A stretch of 64,000 nucleotides of DNA from IMG/VR virus record IMGVR_UViG_3300020431_000008, positions 13,603 through 77,602 of that record; one strand, 5' to 3'. The translations under genes were made by a program, and so were the position numbers. Shown here piece after piece: positions 58,114-63,002 of the stretch. The notes under the pieces are model-generated. The model had not been told where the DNA came from. It searched no databases and saw nothing but the letters and a program-made list of their open reading frames with translations. The stretch comes from a virus. Taxonomy: Duplodnaviria; Caudoviricetes. Positions within the stretch are counted from its first letter, which is position 1. Each line of letters opens with the position of its first letter.

Positions 58114-58161
58114 GATTGATAATTCACTACAATGTCATTTTATCAGGTTATATATCCTCTG

Positions 58162-58365
58162 TCAATAGGAAGATTCTTCAATACTAGGTGTGGTTTCTAC
58201 AACCTCATATGAAAGATCATCCCTATCATACACAGTCTGTAACATACCTACCATCGCATTTAATTCAGTCCACTTTCCCTCAAAGTTCTCTTCCTTTATA
58301 CTAGGTAATATACATTCATTTTTTAGGTATATGTGGTAAAATTTTTCTGGAGCAATTTTTTTCAT
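58162..58365 (-). CDS. Small hypothetical protein
   Basis: 67 aa; AGGAG Shine-Dalgarno upstream. Confidence 0.7.
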   Translation of the reverse strand: MKKIAPEKFYHIYLKNECILPSIKEENFEGKWTELNAMVGMLQTVYDRDDLSYEVVETTPSIEESSY

Positions 58366-58401: not shown

Positions 58402-58428
58402 AAAAAAAAAGAGATCAATATAGATCTC
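58402..58428 (-). terminator. Rho-independent terminator closing the early region
   Basis: Minus-strand RNA GAGAUC-UAUAUU-GAUCUC followed by U9. Confidence 0.7.
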
Positions 58429-58570
58429 AGAGGAATATACTTTTGTAGGTTGCCCTAGACCGGTCTTTTTCGTAGGGGGGGGGGTCCTTTCAATACCTTT
58501 AAGGTTTTACTAAGCCCACATAAGAACTTAACATAACCCCCTTAATCACTGTCGTATTCACAACACTGTC

Positions 58571-58600
58571 AGTATAACACATATGCCCCCTATGTGTCAA
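58571..58600 (-). promoter_or_regulatory. sigma70-like promoter TTGACA-N18-TATACT with extended -10 TG
   Basis: tgtcaa 58595-58600, agtata 58571-58576; internal inverted repeat acacata/tatgtgt. Confidence 0.7.
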
Positions 58601-58643
58601 CCACCAAGGGGCACTGAGTGTTACATAGTGTCACTACTAAGTA

Positions 58644-58808
58644 TCAACAAGCAATGAGGGACTGTTGTACATTTTCACGTAACTCTAAGTAATCATTAAT
58701 ATCATCACAAGTTTCATAGTGCTCCTGCAACATTTCAAACTCTTCAATGTCAATTACTTTGAGATCAATGAGGTTATATAGTGCCAGTGTAAATTGTTCA
58801 GAATGCAT
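58644..58808 (-). CDS. 54-aa acidic early hypothetical protein
   Basis: Hand-translated MHSEQFTLALYNLIDLKVIDIEEFEMLQEHYETCDDINDYLELRENVQQSLIAC; directly after repeat copy 1. Confidence 0.7.
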   Translation of the reverse strand: MHSEQFTLALYNLIDLKVIDIEEFEMLQEHYETCDDINDYLELRENVQQSLIAC

Positions 58809-58819
58809 GGACGGATTAT

Positions 58820-58860
58820 GTGGTTACACTATAGCAGACCTTTAGAGGTTACTAACGTTA
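58820..58860 (-). repeat. Early promoter-like repeat, copy 1 (most divergent)
   Basis: Minus strand TAACGTTAGTAACCTCTAAAGGTCTGCTATAGTGTAACCAC. Confidence 0.85.
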
Positions 58861-58984
58861 ACTCTCTGTGAGTTACTGATGATGATGCCTATGCAACTGT
58901 TGCAGAAGGTGTCAGATACTGTCCCCCTGTGTTTATAAGATAGTGTGTCCCCTGTGTGTTACATAGTGTCCTCTCAGTCTTTAT

Positions 58985-59013
58985 ATTATAGAGCATAAGA
59001 CTGTCCCTGTCAA
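58985..59013 (-). promoter_or_regulatory. Perfect sigma70 promoter TTGACA-N17-TATAAT
   Basis: tgtcaa 59008-59013, attata 58985-58990. Confidence 0.85.
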
Positions 59014-59051
59014 GTAAAACCCTGGGTGGTCAGAAATATATGTGGTCCCCC

Positions 59052-59080
59052 TTGACTTTTGAGAGTTTGTGTGATATAGT
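59052..59080 (+). promoter_or_regulatory. Divergent plus-strand sigma70 promoter TTGACT-N17-TATAGT
   Basis: TTGACT 59052-59057, TATAGT 59075-59080; no plus-strand ORF downstream. Confidence 0.7.
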
Positions 59081-59142
59081 GCAGTCTTAGATCGCTATAA
59101 GTATGAGGGTTTCTGAGAGATAAGAGGGTTCTTAAGTATACC

Positions 59143-59264
59143 TTTTCCACAGATTATCAGACAATAACCACACAAAAGACCCCTTTTTCCACAGGGTTGT
59201 TGAAAACTAACAAAACACTCATATACATTTATTAATACCTTTTTAATTGATTTAAGATAAAAAA
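59143..59264. other. DnaA-box-like cluster plus AT-rich tract (candidate replication origin)
   Basis: TTTTCCACA at 59143-59151 and 59185-59193; inverted TTTTCAACA at 59198-59206; 59221-59264 has 5 G/C in 44 nt. Confidence 0.5.
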
Positions 59265-59269
59265 CATGC

Positions 59270-59276
59270 TATTTAT
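59270..59276 (-). promoter_or_regulatory. Possible late promoter (ATAAATA) pointing into the non-coding island
   Basis: tatttat on plus strand; could be chance in AT-rich DNA. Confidence 0.35.
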
Positions 59277-59284
59277 GGGTGTTT

Positions 59285-59491
59285 TCAGGGGGTAATCTGG
59301 GAGATAGTATCATTTAAGGTAATATGAGTAGTAGTTACTCTATCCCCCAATTCTTCTTTAGTTGGTATAGATGAATGAGGTCTATAAGCATAAAGAATAG
59401 ATGCTAGTTGATACATCAAATGTGTATCTAACTGTGCATCTCTTAAGTGATAGATTGGGTGTGAAGGTAATGAATACATTAGGTGTTCCAT
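59285..59491 (-). CDS. Early hypothetical protein (true start probably 59479, MYSLPSH...)
   Basis: ORF track; TAATG overlap with the upstream stop favours the internal ATG. Confidence 0.55.
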   Translation of the reverse strand: MEHLMYSLPSHPIYHLRDAQLDTHLMYQLASILYAYRPHSSIPTKEELGDRVTTTHITLNDTISQITP

Positions 59492-59748
59492 TGATTAGTT
59501 TGAATAAGATACTTTTTAATTTCTGAGTATGCAAAGTCTCTCAATCTTTGGTTAGTTGATGTATCTAATACTCTATACATTTTGTTGATATAATCATTAG
59601 GAGTAGTTACAGTTACTGATTGTTTAGTAGTCAATCCTATTTGATTAAGATTACTTCCTGCCTTTACTTTTGTCTTACCAAAGTTACCTGTAACATTGCC
59701 TTGTGTTCTAAGTTTAGGTTTAATCTTTGAGAGGTTAGAGTAAGTCAT
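59479..59748 (-). CDS. Basic early hypothetical protein
   Basis: 89 aa; ATGA coupling to upstream ORF. Confidence 0.75.
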   Translation of the reverse strand: MTYSNLSKIKPKLRTQGNVTGNFGKTKVKAGSNLNQIGLTTKQSVTVTTPNDYINKMYRVLDTSTNQRLRDFAYSEIKKYLIQTNQWNT

Positions 59749-59867
59749 TGAAGTTGTTCTAGTGTTTGGTTTCTTTCCTGAATCTTTTGAGTAATGTCTG
59801 AATCAAGAACATCAACCAAAAGATTTACACCTAGGAAAGTAAAGAATACAACAAGTAAGATTCTCAT
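59745..59867 (-). CDS. 40-aa putative membrane peptide
   Basis: Hand-translated MRILLVVFFTFLGVNLLVDVLDSDITQKIQERNQTLEQLQ; ATGA overlaps at both ends. Confidence 0.75.
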   Translation of the reverse strand: MRILLVVFFTFLGVNLLVDVLDSDITQKIQERNQTLEQLQ

Positions 59868-60109
59868 AGTTCCTCAATCATTTCATCAAGTTCAACTAGG
59901 TTAAGATTAACATCATCCCATTTTACTCCATCTAAGGTTGTACCACCTTCCTCAATATACTGATTAAGGAAGTCTTGATATGAGTAACAACGTCTTGCTT
60001 GATTGTATAGACCCTCATCATTACCAATCCATAGTGCTACATTCCAGGTTTCATAGTTACTCCAACCATTGTAAGTTGTGTCTTCAATTGTAGTTTGAAA
60101 TGAGGTCAT
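59864..60109 (-). CDS. Early hypothetical protein (YNGWSNYETWNVALW family)
   Basis: 81 aa; this N-terminal motif is common in phage early genes. Confidence 0.8.
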   Translation of the reverse strand: MTSFQTTIEDTTYNGWSNYETWNVALWIGNDEGLYNQARRCYSYQDFLNQYIEEGGTTLDGVKWDDVNLNLVELDEMIEEL

Positions 60110-60192
60110 GATGTTAGATTAGTGATGTTGGTTCAGTGAAACAATTCCCAGAAACAATCTTAGAGAGAAGTGGGATAGAGAAGACTGAACCC

Positions 60193-60230
60193 TTACACTA
60201 TAGAGGACATTTAGAGGTTACTAACTTTAA
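60193..60230 (-). repeat. Early promoter-like repeat, copy 2
   Basis: 38-nt core identical to copies 5 and 6. Confidence 0.9.
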
Positions 60231-60233
60231 TAG

Positions 60234-60374
60234 TCAGAATGTAATCTCATTAAGTGTTGGTTGCTTGATTACTGATTGTTGATTAGTACCCTCAACAATA
60301 GTATTCAAAATCTCAAGGATTTCTGTTCCTGTGTTACCCTTACTAAGAAGAGCAATCATTACAGAATTAGACAT
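60234..60374 (-). CDS. 46-aa early hypothetical protein
   Basis: Hand-translated MSNSVMIALLSKGNTGTEILEILNTIVEGTNQQSVIKQPTLNEITF. Confidence 0.7.
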   Translation of the reverse strand: MSNSVMIALLSKGNTGTEILEILNTIVEGTNQQSVIKQPTLNEITF

Positions 60375-60437
60375 GATGTGAGTGTTAATTAGTGTGTTTT
60401 GAGTAAATGTTAGTTTACAGTCATCACGGACTATTAC

Positions 60438-60797
60438 TTAAGCAAAGATGAAACCATTAGTGAAATCATAGGTATTAAAGACTTTACTTTGTCCTGCCAT
60501 TCCTACAAACTTATCAACATACCACTTAAAGTTCTTTTGATAAACACATTCACCATCAATACAAAACTCATTACATAGTGCATTTAATCTACTCTTTGTT
60601 GTATTAGATTGCCAACCACCATCAAAGATTGTCATATTATCATCAGTTACTTCTGCAATAAGATTGTTATGTAGATAGACTTGAGTTACAACACATTCTT
60701 TATCATCATTGAAGAAATTAATTGTGTGAGTATTGCCAGACTTCCAATCTTTCTCAGAATTGATAGCAGCAATCATTTGAGTTTCAATCTTTCTCAT
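60438..60797 (-). CDS. Early hypothetical protein (MRKIE...GGWQSNTTKSRLNAL family)
   Basis: 119 aa directly after repeat copy 3. Confidence 0.85.
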   Translation of the reverse strand: MRKIETQMIAAINSEKDWKSGNTHTINFFNDDKECVVTQVYLHNNLIAEVTDDNMTIFDGGWQSNTTKSRLNALCNEFCIDGECVYQKNFKWYVDKFVGMAGQSKVFNTYDFTNGFIFA

Positions 60798-60810
60798 GGT
60801 TGGTTTTGTA

Positions 60811-60852
60811 GTGGTTACACTATAGATGACATTTGAAGGTTACTAACTTTAA
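60811..60852 (-). repeat. Early promoter-like repeat, copy 3
   Basis: Minus strand TTAAAGTTAGTAACCTTCAAATGTCATCTATAGTGTAACCAC. Confidence 0.9.
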
Positions 60853-60904
60853 TTAAAATATATTTGCTTAGATCAATGTTACACTAATTCCTGCTGTTGT
60901 AACA

Positions 60905-61165
60905 TTAGTTGGCAGATGTTAATGTAATTCGGTTAATCTCATCTTCAATACATTCTGCAATCTGTTCAAAAATATAATCACCTTCATGAACTTCGGTTAA
61001 TACTTTTCCAGTAATCTCTTCAGAATAATATACTTCGTCACCATCATCATTCATCGTCAATACATCATTAGCAGAGAAAATCCAATATGCTACAGGTGCA
61101 TTTTCTCCCTGTTCTTTGATCATACTATTAACACGGTCTTGAAGTTGCTTGAGAGTGTAGTTCAT
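60905..61165 (-). CDS. Acidic early hypothetical protein
   Basis: 86-aa ORF. Confidence 0.75.
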   Translation of the reverse strand: MNYTLKQLQDRVNSMIKEQGENAPVAYWIFSANDVLTMNDDGDEVYYSEEITGKVLTEVHEGDYIFEQIAECIEDEINRITLTSAN

Positions 61166-61196
61166 AATTTGTTCCTAATTTGGGTGAGATTGGGAG

Positions 61197-61391
61197 TTAG
61201 TTAGTAAATGTAATCTCATATTCATTTTCCTCTGTAATTAACCTGATACCATTATCACCAAAAGATGAGTAATCTAATAATGGTGCAATAACATCAGTCT
61301 CTAGATTATGAAGATAAACATACTCTTCATCACCATATGTGATACAGATACTATTCAATGAATCACAGATTTCAACAGTTTTGATGAACAT
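61197..61391 (-). CDS. Acidic early hypothetical protein
   Basis: 64-aa ORF. Confidence 0.65.
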   Translation of the reverse strand: MFIKTVEICDSLNSICITYGDEEYVYLHNLETDVIAPLLDYSSFGDNGIRLITEENEYEITFTN

Positions 61392-61428
61392 AATAAAAAA
61401 AGAAAAGTGTGTGGATTAATGTAAAAGA

Positions 61429-61638
61429 TTAAGCAGTTGCTGATTCATAGATTTCATAAAACATATCCCATGCTTTAGTATCATGAACAAAAGAATTAAT
61501 TCCTATCTGATCAGAAACCCAATCATATGCAAAATCAATATCTGCACCTGTTTCTAATACAAAGGATTGTAACCCTTGTAATGTGTCAATGAATTTTGGA
61601 TCTGTGTGAATCATATTGTTGTTTGATGTAGTGCTCAT
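61429..61638 (-). CDS. Early hypothetical protein (true start probably 61614, MIHTDPKF...)
   Basis: ATG at 61638 abuts the -10 of repeat copy 4 and would lie upstream of the predicted start site. Confidence 0.7.
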   Translation of the reverse strand: MSTTSNNNMIHTDPKFIDTLQGLQSFVLETGADIDFAYDWVSDQIGINSFVHDTKAWDMFYEIYESATA

Positions 61639-61672
61639 ACTATAGGGGACATTTGGAGGTTACTAACTTTAA
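61631..61672 (-). repeat. Early promoter-like repeat, copy 4
   Basis: Minus strand TTAAAGTTAGTAACCTCCAAATGTCCCCTATAGTATGAGCAC. Confidence 0.85.
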
Positions 61673-61677
61673 TCATA

Positions 61678-61857
61678 TTAATCTTTATCACTTATGTTCC
61701 ATCTAGTGATAGGTACTAACTTAATCTCACCAGAACGTAATTTGTTCCTATATTCTTCTTCCTTCTGCAATTGTAAAATATAATTCTTTAATGCTGCTTG
61801 AATAATTGGATCATTCTTTGCAGTTTCATTTTGTAAAAAGCAATCCTTTTTAATCAT
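61678..61857 (-). CDS. 59-aa early hypothetical protein
   Basis: Hand-translated MIKKDCFLQNETAKNDPIIQAALKELYLQLQKEEEYRNKLRSGEIKLVPITRWNISDKD; A/C-rich leader. Confidence 0.7.
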   Translation of the reverse strand: MIKKDCFLQNETAKNDPIIQAALKNYILQLQKEEEYRNKLRSGEIKLVPITRWNISDKD

Positions 61858-61975
61858 GGTTTTGTGGTGTAAAATGTTGTTTTGTGTGGTGTGGTGTGTA
61901 AAGATTTCTCTCCAACAATGGGTCTTATATGTAACATAGTAACCACCACAATCATTTAGTTACAATGCCCATCTA

Positions 61976-62269
61976 TCACAATTGTGAATAAACTACCTTG
62001 ATATTATTAGAGATAATAGGTTGATCACAATTTTCATCAATACTATATGTTGCAACCTTACTAATCAATCTTTTATCAATAGAACCTGAATTATCAATCA
62101 CTGTTGTATTAACAAATTCTGCACCTTTATACTCTAGTTGATTCTCAATCCATTCAAATAGTTCTGACTTACTATCAAATAGTTTTACAGTAGAAAGATC
62201 ATTGTCTGCTGTTGCAACATATGCACCACTGAAATCAGGGTTCATAGAAGAGAAAGAATAGAAAGGCAT
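61976..62269 (-). CDS. Early hypothetical protein
   Basis: 97 aa directly after repeat copy 5. Confidence 0.75.
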   Translation of the reverse strand: MPFYSFSSMNPDFSGAYVATADNDLSTVKLFDSKSELFEWIENQLEYKGAEFVNTTVIDNSGSIDKRLISKVATYSIDENCDQPIISNNIKVVYSQL

Positions 62270-62279
62270 CAGAGTTTGT

Positions 62280-62321
62280 GTGGTTACACTATAGAGGACA
62301 TTTAGAGGTTACTAACTTTAA
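62280..62321 (-). repeat. Early promoter-like repeat, copy 5
   Basis: Minus strand TTAAAGTTAGTAACCTCTAAATGTCCTCTATAGTGTAACCAC; contains the stop codon of the upstream ORF. Confidence 0.9.
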
Positions 62322-62500
62322 TAGTGAGTAGAATAGGATGCTATATGACCAGGAACACCACTTAATGCAAGTCCTGTGTTCTGATAATCCGCATAATCAT
62401 CAGCAGCATCTTCACTATCAAAAGGTCCAATAAATTGTGGTTCATCATATTCAGCAGAATAGAATCTTACATAGTATTTTTTTGAGTTGATGGAAAACAT
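62318..62500 (-). CDS. 60-aa early hypothetical protein
   Basis: Bounded by repeat copies 6 and 5; YVRF...IGPFDSEDAA motif. Confidence 0.75.
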   Translation of the reverse strand: MFSINSKKYYVRFYSAEYDEPQFIGPFDSEDAADDYADYQNTGLALSGVPGHIASYSTHY

Positions 62501-62516
62501 TTGATTGATTGAGTGC

Positions 62517-62554
62517 TTACACTATAGAGGACATTTAGAGGTTACTAACTTTAA
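62517..62554 (-). repeat. Early promoter-like repeat, copy 6
   Basis: 38-nt core identical to copies 2 and 5. Confidence 0.9.
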
Positions 62555-62585
62555 TTAAAATATATTTGCTTAGACATGATGATAA

Positions 62586-62750
62586 TTAACCTCCAAACAT
62601 TTCCTCAAAAAGAGGAGTTTCACGATTCTCTCTATCATACATCTCATTGACTAACCAAATGTTTTGTTTAATCCATGCAATCTCTTGTTCTTTTTTTGTC
62701 AACATTTGACGAAGTTCATAGAGTTGTTGATTTCTTTCTGTGATTGTCAT
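62586..62750 (-). CDS. 54-aa early hypothetical protein
   Basis: Hand-translated MTITERNQQLYELRQMLTKKEQEIAWIKQNIWLVNEMYDRENRETPLFEEMFGG; bounded by copies 7 and 6. Confidence 0.75.
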   Translation of the reverse strand: MTITERNQQLYELRQMLTKKEQEIAWIKQNIWLVNEMYDRENRETPLFEEMFGG

Positions 62751-62759
62751 AATAGTTCA

Positions 62760-62801
62760 GTGGTTACACTACAGAGGACATTTGAAGGTTACTAACTTTA
62801 A
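62760..62801 (-). repeat. Early promoter-like repeat, copy 7 (-10 variant TGTAGT)
   Basis: Minus strand TTAAAGTTAGTAACCTTCAAATGTCCTCTGTAGTGTAACCAC. Confidence 0.88.
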
Positions 62802-63002
62802 TTACCCATGATTATCCATAAACTCATCAAGAGTATAATACTCACCAGTTGATGTTTCCTCAATCAATTCTTTCACAGTAAGTTTCTCTAGATCCTTACG
62901 ATATTCTTCAGGTGTTTGATCTTCAGGGTCATAATCATCATGACAAAGATAATCCCATTCATGCACTAATGCGTCAATTAGTTGTTCTTTAGTGTAGTCC
63001 AT
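62802..63002 (-). CDS. Acidic early hypothetical protein
   Basis: 66 aa; stop immediately abuts repeat copy 7. Confidence 0.75.
   Translation of the reverse strand: MDYTKEQLIDALVHEWDYLCHDDYDPEDQTPEEYRKDLEKLTVKELIEETSTGEYYTLDEFMDNHG

Follow-up and report, generated by a model that had tools for sequence, protein, structure and literature searches.

A repeated intergenic element of a T4-like cyanomyovirus genome fragment, probably a lineage-specific version of a promoter-type control element before small non-structural genes

Seven copies of an intergenic element of about 40 nucleotides (nt) are placed among small genes in one region of a 64,000-nt stretch of viral DNA (the window), which makes up the terminal 64 kilobases (kb) of the 77.6-kb IMG/VR record IMGVR_UViG_3300020431_000008. 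At a probability of roughly 0.65, this element is a lineage-specific version of the promoter-type control element that stands before small non-structural genes in a single region of T4-like cyanomyovirus genomes. Control elements of this kind have most likely been reported for T4-like cyanophages already, the version of the present lineage being different in sequence. The promoter role, which an earlier note on this DNA had proposed for the repeat, is considered likely from the strict co-orientation of the copies with the genes, their position before start codons and a conservation exceeding that of the flanking genes, and also from the equivalent repeats found before homologous genes in other T4-like cyanophages. 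The record has a completeness rating of approximately 40%, and the nearest DNA matches of the window came solely from T4-like cyanomyoviruses (Kyanoviridae), with 67–78% identity over short gene-sized pieces; judged by its sequence, it is a fragment of a T4-like cyanomyovirus genome. The T4-like cyanophages kill a large share of ocean picocyanobacteria, and the onset of their gene expression in the absence of MotA and AsiA is partly understood.

All credible genes between 56 and 64 kb of the window were located on the minus strand. The 29-nt core of the element, GTTAGTAACC-N3-AAA-N-GTC-N2-CTATAGT, occurred there seven times, exclusively on the minus strand, with six exact matches and one copy with a single mismatch, while shuffled sequences predicted none. 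A weight matrix built from relatives scored these copies at 43–54 bits, and nothing else in the window reached 8 bits on either strand. The genome-wide motif scan suggested in the earlier note was also run over the rest of the 77.6-kb record and revealed no further copy of the core pattern. The copies are numbered here from 62760..62800 (copy 1) down to 58820..58860 (copy 7), in the reverse of the earlier order. Both scans reproduced the previously noticed seven minus-strand copies of one repeat, and the three near-identical ones among them (60189-60229, 62280-62320 and 62513-62553) were identical over 37 nt of the 41-mer, or over 40 nt when three bases of the 5' flank were added. The embedded stop codon was also recovered: the TAA of a 60-amino acid (aa) open reading frame (ORF), at 62318-62320, lies inside copy 3. 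The proposed position of the copies at or close to the preceding stop was found for four of the seven (0–6 nt) but not for the other three, where the distance was 33, 54 and approximately 430 nt. The copies are spaced by 233–1369 nt, and the units contain, as had been described, from one to four ORFs of 40–119 aa. A PHROG or Pfam family could be assigned to 11 of the 16 small ORFs at 58644-63002, indicating that most of them are real genes; all of these families, including Kyano_Gp96 and DUF7249, are of unknown function. In a 96%-identical contig (L027) the array continues past the end of the record with at least five additional units.

The 29-nt pattern was present in 61 stretches of uncultured-phage contigs from IMG/VR. 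Together with the window, these gave 295 copies by the weight matrix and none on the opposite strand. Most copies (263 of 295) were located between two called ORFs, and the median intergenic gap reached 48 nt at the junctions with the element against 5 nt at those without it. Between copies standing before unrelated genes the identity over the 29 nt was 87%, above the mere 66–83% that orthologous genes from these contigs shared with the window, indicating that the element itself is conserved by selection. It is, in other words, a strand-specific intergenic signal of approximately 29–45 nt under direct selection. A relaxed pattern had no match in 185,579 prokaryote genomes (one per species); the element is not a site borrowed from the host. 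Many contigs (L014, L018, L019, L028, L037, L041, L052, L062, L064 and others) have an end that coincides exactly with an element copy; such ends are probably repeat-induced assembly breaks, so that the array lengths seen in metagenomes are underestimates.

Among cultured cyanophages, S-B05 and SynMITS9220M01 carried sister versions in which the AAA...GTC...CTATAGT half was kept and the 5' block was ATTACTCACC or GTTACTCACC. The complete 190-kb genome of SynMITS9220M01 had nine copies of its own version, all on one strand and all within 38.9–50.0 kb. The 5' block was fixed inside each lineage and different between lineages, which would fit either a lineage-matched reader or slow concerted change. 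In Syn9, the pattern and weight-matrix scans found no copy within three mismatches and nothing above 8 bits, and exact k-mer counting gave no long repeat. At the equivalent places Syn9, S-RIM12 and S-CAM8 possess an unrelated repeat, GGCACA ... CTTGC ... TACTATAAGAGTC, preceding homologues of the Kyano_Gp96, phrog_714 and DUF6267 genes of the window. Doron and co-workers reportedly described in 2016 a novel regulatory element that serves the early genes in Syn9 and P-TIM40 and is conserved across the T4-like cyanophages, and are also said to have assigned host-like promoters to the middle genes; we infer that the Syn9-type repeat is this element. The literature consulted contained no printed motif and no usable start-site data for cyanophages. 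The GTTA-G-TAAC palindrome and the 11-nt CCTCTA spacing pointed out in the earlier note are both present in the element of the window, but the palindrome is not kept in the S-B05 and SynMITS9220M01 versions. This argues against a dimeric operator at the palindrome, and that candidate, GntR/PlmA included, is disfavored.

The signals inside the element agreed with the previous description of a good -10 and a poor -35: TATAGT matches the -10 consensus in five of six positions with a spacer of 16–17 base pairs (bp), while the best -35 readings (TTAGTA and GTTAGT) match in only two to three of six by manual hexamer count. With these hexamers, the element might be a plain host sigma-70 promoter starting at a CA dinucleotide and operating with no extra factor, in which case the identity of the copies would come from duplication or gene conversion. 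The CA does lie at the expected start position, and copies within a contig were slightly more alike than copies between contigs (0.812 vs 0.791, a difference reached by none of 1000 shuffles). We regard such a plain promoter as unlikely, since the AAA and GTC spacer blocks and the 10-nt 5' block are invariant across some 50 diverged contigs with genes of 66–83% identity, the homogenization within genomes is weak, and a promoter scan which missed the copies called three near-perfect host-type promoters just downstream of the array (58985-59013, 58571-58600 and 58137-58165 on the minus strand, with 12, 11 and 11 of 12 matches, respectively). These neighboring promoters, of another class than the repeat, agree with 'host-like' promoters serving genes of a later class.

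Several points weigh against the reading as a promoter-type element. Its promoter function, timing and start site are what we infer rather than observe, and so is the match between the Syn9-type repeat and the published early element. The simple sigma-70 scan at a cut-off of 9 of 12 called none of the seven copies, the best manual reading reaching 7 of 12. The searches for a T7-type polymerase, AsiA and MotA brought up no candidate specificity factor, and 68% of the breakpoints between related arrays were away from the element. Finally, 98 of 268 copies have an ATG immediately behind TATAGT, and in 92 of these 98 it opens the next ORF: a transcript start 7 nt after TATAGT cannot serve such genes, while a start directly behind a -10 box does not correspond to the normal sigma-70 geometry.

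The abutting ATG opened the next ORF always in 17 of 22 gene families and never in three, the chance expectation being at most one third. In the DUF6267 family the conserved N-terminus, encoded in at least three codon variants, begins at the abutting ATG, and this ATG aligns with the one found behind copies that are followed by a leader. For copy 4 of the window, the PHROG 714 profile aligned with the 69-aa form, which opens with the built-in ATG, beginning at its residue 3; this supports the long form of the ORF. The remaining copies had the start codon 15–25 nt downstream, making the distance bimodal (either 0 or 15–25 nt). The built-in ATG was found in 8 of 25 copies having no upstream copy within 2 kb and in 64 of 176 copies having one; this equal frequency argues against a dependence on read-through from the preceding copy of the element. 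It also speaks against the plain host sigma-70 promoter, by which the built-in start codons would be cut off. Among 222 unique copies the base following TATAGT was a purine without exception (100%), while A occupied the seventh position in 82%, with C before it in 64%. Two readings remain, with the start either right after TATAGT or six to seven bases beyond it, at the CA. In the first case TATAGT would not be a canonical -10 and about a third of the messenger RNAs (mRNAs) would be leaderless; in the second the built-in start codons would be usable only on transcripts coming from farther upstream. The start at about 7 nt after TATAGT predicted in the earlier note conflicts, accordingly, with the copies whose selected ATG abuts TATAGT, although the CA at that place is still one of the two readings. 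A promoter geometry used by no sigma-70-type holoenzyme, with the start at the purine after TATAGT and leaderless mRNAs for approximately a third of the genes, is put forward tentatively and is on balance doubtful. If true, it would imply a new specificity factor in T4-like cyanophages co-varying with the 5' block, either a functional counterpart of MotA/AsiA or a protein delivered with the virion.

The element might, alternatively, act at the RNA level on polycistronic transcripts from other promoters, as a cleavage site near the AUG or as the operator of a translational repressor such as RegA, whose RNA site in T4 the 5' block may resemble. Its strict confinement to the coding strand, its end exactly at the start codon in a third of the copies and the host-type promoters nearby would suit such a signal. 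So would the lack of terminators between the units (the only terminator-like site in 8 kb, at 58411-58428, is not at any copy) and an A/C-rich RNA of element plus leader for which no structure was predicted. Nevertheless, 29 invariant or near-invariant unstructured bases far exceed what endoribonucleases or RegA are known to recognize, the bimodal AUG distance is odd for a ribosome or repressor site, CTATAGT resembles a DNA -10 element, and Rfam had no match within 56–64 kb. An RNA-level signal is, altogether, improbable.

In the promoter-type mechanism preferred here, the host RNA polymerase would use the element, with the CTATAGT block serving as, or overlapping, the -10 region and the invariant 5' block GTTAGTAACC, 13 bp upstream, replacing the -35 and being recognized by a specificity factor. 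The logic would be that of the T4 middle promoter, with no homologues of MotA or AsiA involved. The element showed no RNA structure, and the 55 nt upstream of each copy formed no consistent hairpin, both in agreement with this mechanism. Transcripts would begin either at the always-purine base after TATAGT, being leaderless where the ATG abuts, or at the conserved CA further on, and, with no terminators between units, would continue into the following ones. Neither in the record nor in the complete genome of SynMITS9220M01 was there a match for a T7-type RNA polymerase, AsiA or MotA, the controls of these searches being silent as well, which makes them weak negatives; a T7-type promoter was rejected as an explanation on the lack of a T7-type polymerase gene in the same two sequences, with the same silent controls. 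The element family would offer a precise DNA target for finding the missing factor, and the start codon that the element often carries constrains where transcription must begin.

The earlier note had also assigned to the repeat the role of a recombination handle. Gene-order strings of 61 loci showed a loosely conserved order with many gains, losses and swaps of units, and an unchanged downstream neighbor was seen in 16% of the comparisons across junctions with the element and in 29% across the remaining ones. Breakpoints were defined as internal alignment ends, with a minimum alignment length of 300 nt and a minimum identity of 88%, because the count from all alignments was swamped by element-only matches. 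Among 233 such ends, 74 fell at the element (5.3% of the bases), 90 at other gene junctions (13.8%) and 64 inside genes (76.8%), which per junction makes the ends at the element approximately twofold more common than at other gene junctions. The variable 3' positions and the bases after TATAGT followed the downstream gene, while the 5' flank followed the upstream gene weakly, the pattern that exchanges within the invariant 5' block would produce. Single genes (F78, F50, F30) also moved at junctions without the element, and the best collinear relative (G005/L064) differed from the window at both types of junctions; in this relative, unlike in the window, the 59-aa ORF is preceded by a copy of the element. 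Copies 2 and 5 share the same 25-nt upstream extension, resembling the last 17 nt of the F8 genes (C-terminus ...WTNIF), a family which usually ends a unit in relatives and is absent from the window; either the ends of two deletions lay outside the element, 25 nt upstream of it, or the remnant and the element were copied together.

A stretch of about 30 nt recurring every 0.2–1.4 kb would be a preferred site of homologous exchange, and the element may act as a favored, but not the sole, seam for the gain, loss and swapping of gene units. Its recombination role is partly supported by the sequences compared, and appears real but modest. Of the handle idea, the twofold junction excess and the linkage of the 3' part to the downstream gene stood, in opposition to the larger share of breakpoints elsewhere and the deletions ending outside the element; the comparison of cassette order in relatives suggested in the earlier note did find different orders, with breakpoints enriched only about twofold at the repeats. 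The idea of an integron analogue with cassette excision was not upheld: there is no folded site, each unit has its own signal, and nothing indicated circles. A site-specific recombination site that excises and inserts cassettes by means of no known integrase would account for units bounded by the repeat and for their variable order among relatives. It is, however, highly improbable. A search for tyrosine recombinases, with positive controls detected in 14 of 14 genomes, was negative for the record and for the complete SynMITS9220M01 genome. Folded or palindromic structure is lacking in the element, and its copies are all direct repeats in the orientation of the genes. Junctions without the element see single genes move about as readily, and the deletion ends lie 25 nt outside it. 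The array is not a new cassette-mobility system, and a moderate role of its repeats as seams helps to explain the reshuffling of a pool of small genes of unknown function.

Table 1. Element copies and other features in the array region of the window.
Feature	Position	Strand	Remarks
Element copy 1	62760..62800	-	core 62768-62796; TGTAGT variant of the last block; heads 54-aa ORF; 45.2 bits
Element copy 2	62513..62553	-	core 62521-62549; heads 60-aa ORF; 50.1 bits
Element copy 3	62280..62320	-	core 62288-62316; exact consensus of the earlier note; holds TAA of 60-aa ORF; heads 97-aa and 59-aa ORFs
Element copy 4	61632..61672	-	core 61639-61667; sole copy in the window with ATG directly after TATAGT; 53.7 bits
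Element copy 5	60811..60851	-	core 60819-60847; heads Kyano_Gp96 gene
Element copy 6	60189..60229	-	core 60197-60225; followed by 87-nt leader and four-gene unit
Element copy 7	58820..58860	-	core 58828-58856; AAAGGTCTG variant; heads 54-aa ORF; orthologous copy in L045
DUF6267 gene, 293 aa	63113..63994	-	upstream of the array; start codon abuts element in at least 12 related contigs
66-aa ORF	62802..63002	-	phrog_734
54-aa ORF	62586..62750	-	phrog_19748
60-aa ORF	62318..62500	-	phrog_28075
97-aa ORF	61976..62269	-	no family match
59-aa ORF	61678..61857	-	phrog_14769; element copy in front in G005, L057 and L064, none in the window
69-aa ORF	61429..61638	-	phrog_714; start is the ATG built into copy 4
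64-aa ORF	61197..61391	-	no family match; homologous DNA in L010 and L064
86-aa ORF	60905..61165	-	phrog_1255; ends a different unit (F1 F2 F4) in most relatives
Kyano_Gp96 gene, 119 aa	60438..60797	-	PF23790
46-aa ORF	60234..60374	-	no family match
Four-gene unit behind copy 6	59285..60109	-	81-aa (DUF7249), 40-aa (phrog_2517), 89-aa and 68-aa ORFs
54-aa ORF behind copy 7	58644..58808	-	
25-nt extension upstream of copy 2	62550..62574	-	exact match to 60848-60872; remnant of F8-gene 3' end
25-nt extension upstream of copy 5	60848..60872	-	second remnant of F8-gene 3' end
Host-type promoter TTGACA-17-TATAAT, perfect	58985..59013	-	about 130 nt upstream of copy 7; promoter class differs from the repeat

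Several further features were noticed in and around the array, those given by coordinates being on the minus strand. An exact 15-nt repeat, GACACTATGTAACAC, is present at 58956-58970 and 58618-58632 and shares CTAT..GTAAC with the tail of the element; one copy follows the -10 of the 59013 promoter at a distance of 15 nt, and the other is just upstream of the promoter at 58600. The stretch of about 160 nt at 58405-58566, between the 58600 promoter and the terminator-like hairpin, contains no credible ORF and is a candidate non-coding transcript. It folded no better than shuffles (z -0.5), and folding was likewise weak for the transcript downstream of the 59013 promoter and for the 58566-58400 stretch. 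The unusually long, 87-nt leader after copy 6 (60110-60196) has a 9-bp hairpin, GGGTTCAGT ... ACTGAACC, and is 82–89% identical in L010, L064 and G005, a conservation equal to or above that of the gene behind it. The 118-nt spacer at 61858-61975, between the 97-aa and 59-aa ORFs, has no element in the window and a copy in L057, L064 and G005. This spacer includes GTGGTTAC, the complement of the element tail; a small RNA complementary to the GTAACCAC tail was rejected, as this is the only minus-strand GTGGTTAC (61939-61946) and the spacer folds no better than shuffles.

Homologues of Kyano_Gp96 occurred in 403 phage records. Some map to the left (early) end in podoviruses of the T7-like type (S-SBP1, 1566-1838; Vibrio phage R25D, 1601-1861), and the homologue of Burkholderia phage AMP1 is annotated as a 'putative transcription regulator'. 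The DUF6267 protein has a strictly conserved N-terminal HxEHPED and, near residue 33, a K-x-D-G-like motif that, read from the sequence, is reminiscent of motif I of nucleotidyl-transferases or ligases.

Among the known systems, the promoter-early stem-loops (PeSLs) have been described in the T4-type phages RB49/phi1, T4/PST and KVP40/nt-1 (PMC2839356, PMC4122927). The array resembles them in that a regulatory motif, pointing in the direction of the genes, is repeated between the small ORFs of a hyperplastic region. In the coincidence of the motifs with indel and replacement junctions between relatives the resemblance may be partial: the enrichment here is only about twofold over other gene junctions, with 68% of the breakpoints lying elsewhere. 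In contrast to the PeSLs, the element has neither a stem-loop or terminator half nor a sigma-70-like -35 forming a near-consensus early promoter. By analogy, the array would work like the PeSL regions of T4-type coliphages and vibriophages while failing these two defining features. From integrons it differs in having no integrase and no folded attC-type sites, and in that each unit carries its own signal instead of being promoterless. The T7/SP6-type promoters are similarly long, contiguous and highly conserved, ending in CTATAG plus a purine at the presumed start; the difference is that neither the record nor SynMITS9220M01 yielded a T7-type polymerase gene (controls silent), and no T4-like phage is known to encode such an enzyme.

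In the T4 middle promoters, a MotA box at -30, about 12 bp from the -10, replaces the -35, and the sigma factor is appropriated by MotA together with AsiA. The element shares with them a conserved box in place of the -35, 13 bp upstream of a good -10-like hexamer, but its box is unrelated in sequence, its spacer is conserved too, and there was no match for AsiA or MotA (controls silent). A close parallel is the early element attributed above to Doron and co-workers: a repeated, non-host-like element before small non-structural genes of Kyanoviridae, with near-consensus host-type promoters at the neighboring genes. The Syn9 repeat is unrelated in sequence to the element described here and comes closer to a -35/-10 pair with a purine-rich leader behind it, while the present element is marked by the invariant 5' block of 10 nt, by the conservation of its spacer and by the start codon built into a third of the copies. 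Within the T4-like cyanophages it is best described, on the present comparison, as a new sequence version, which occupies the place of the Syn9-type element while being unrelated to it in sequence.

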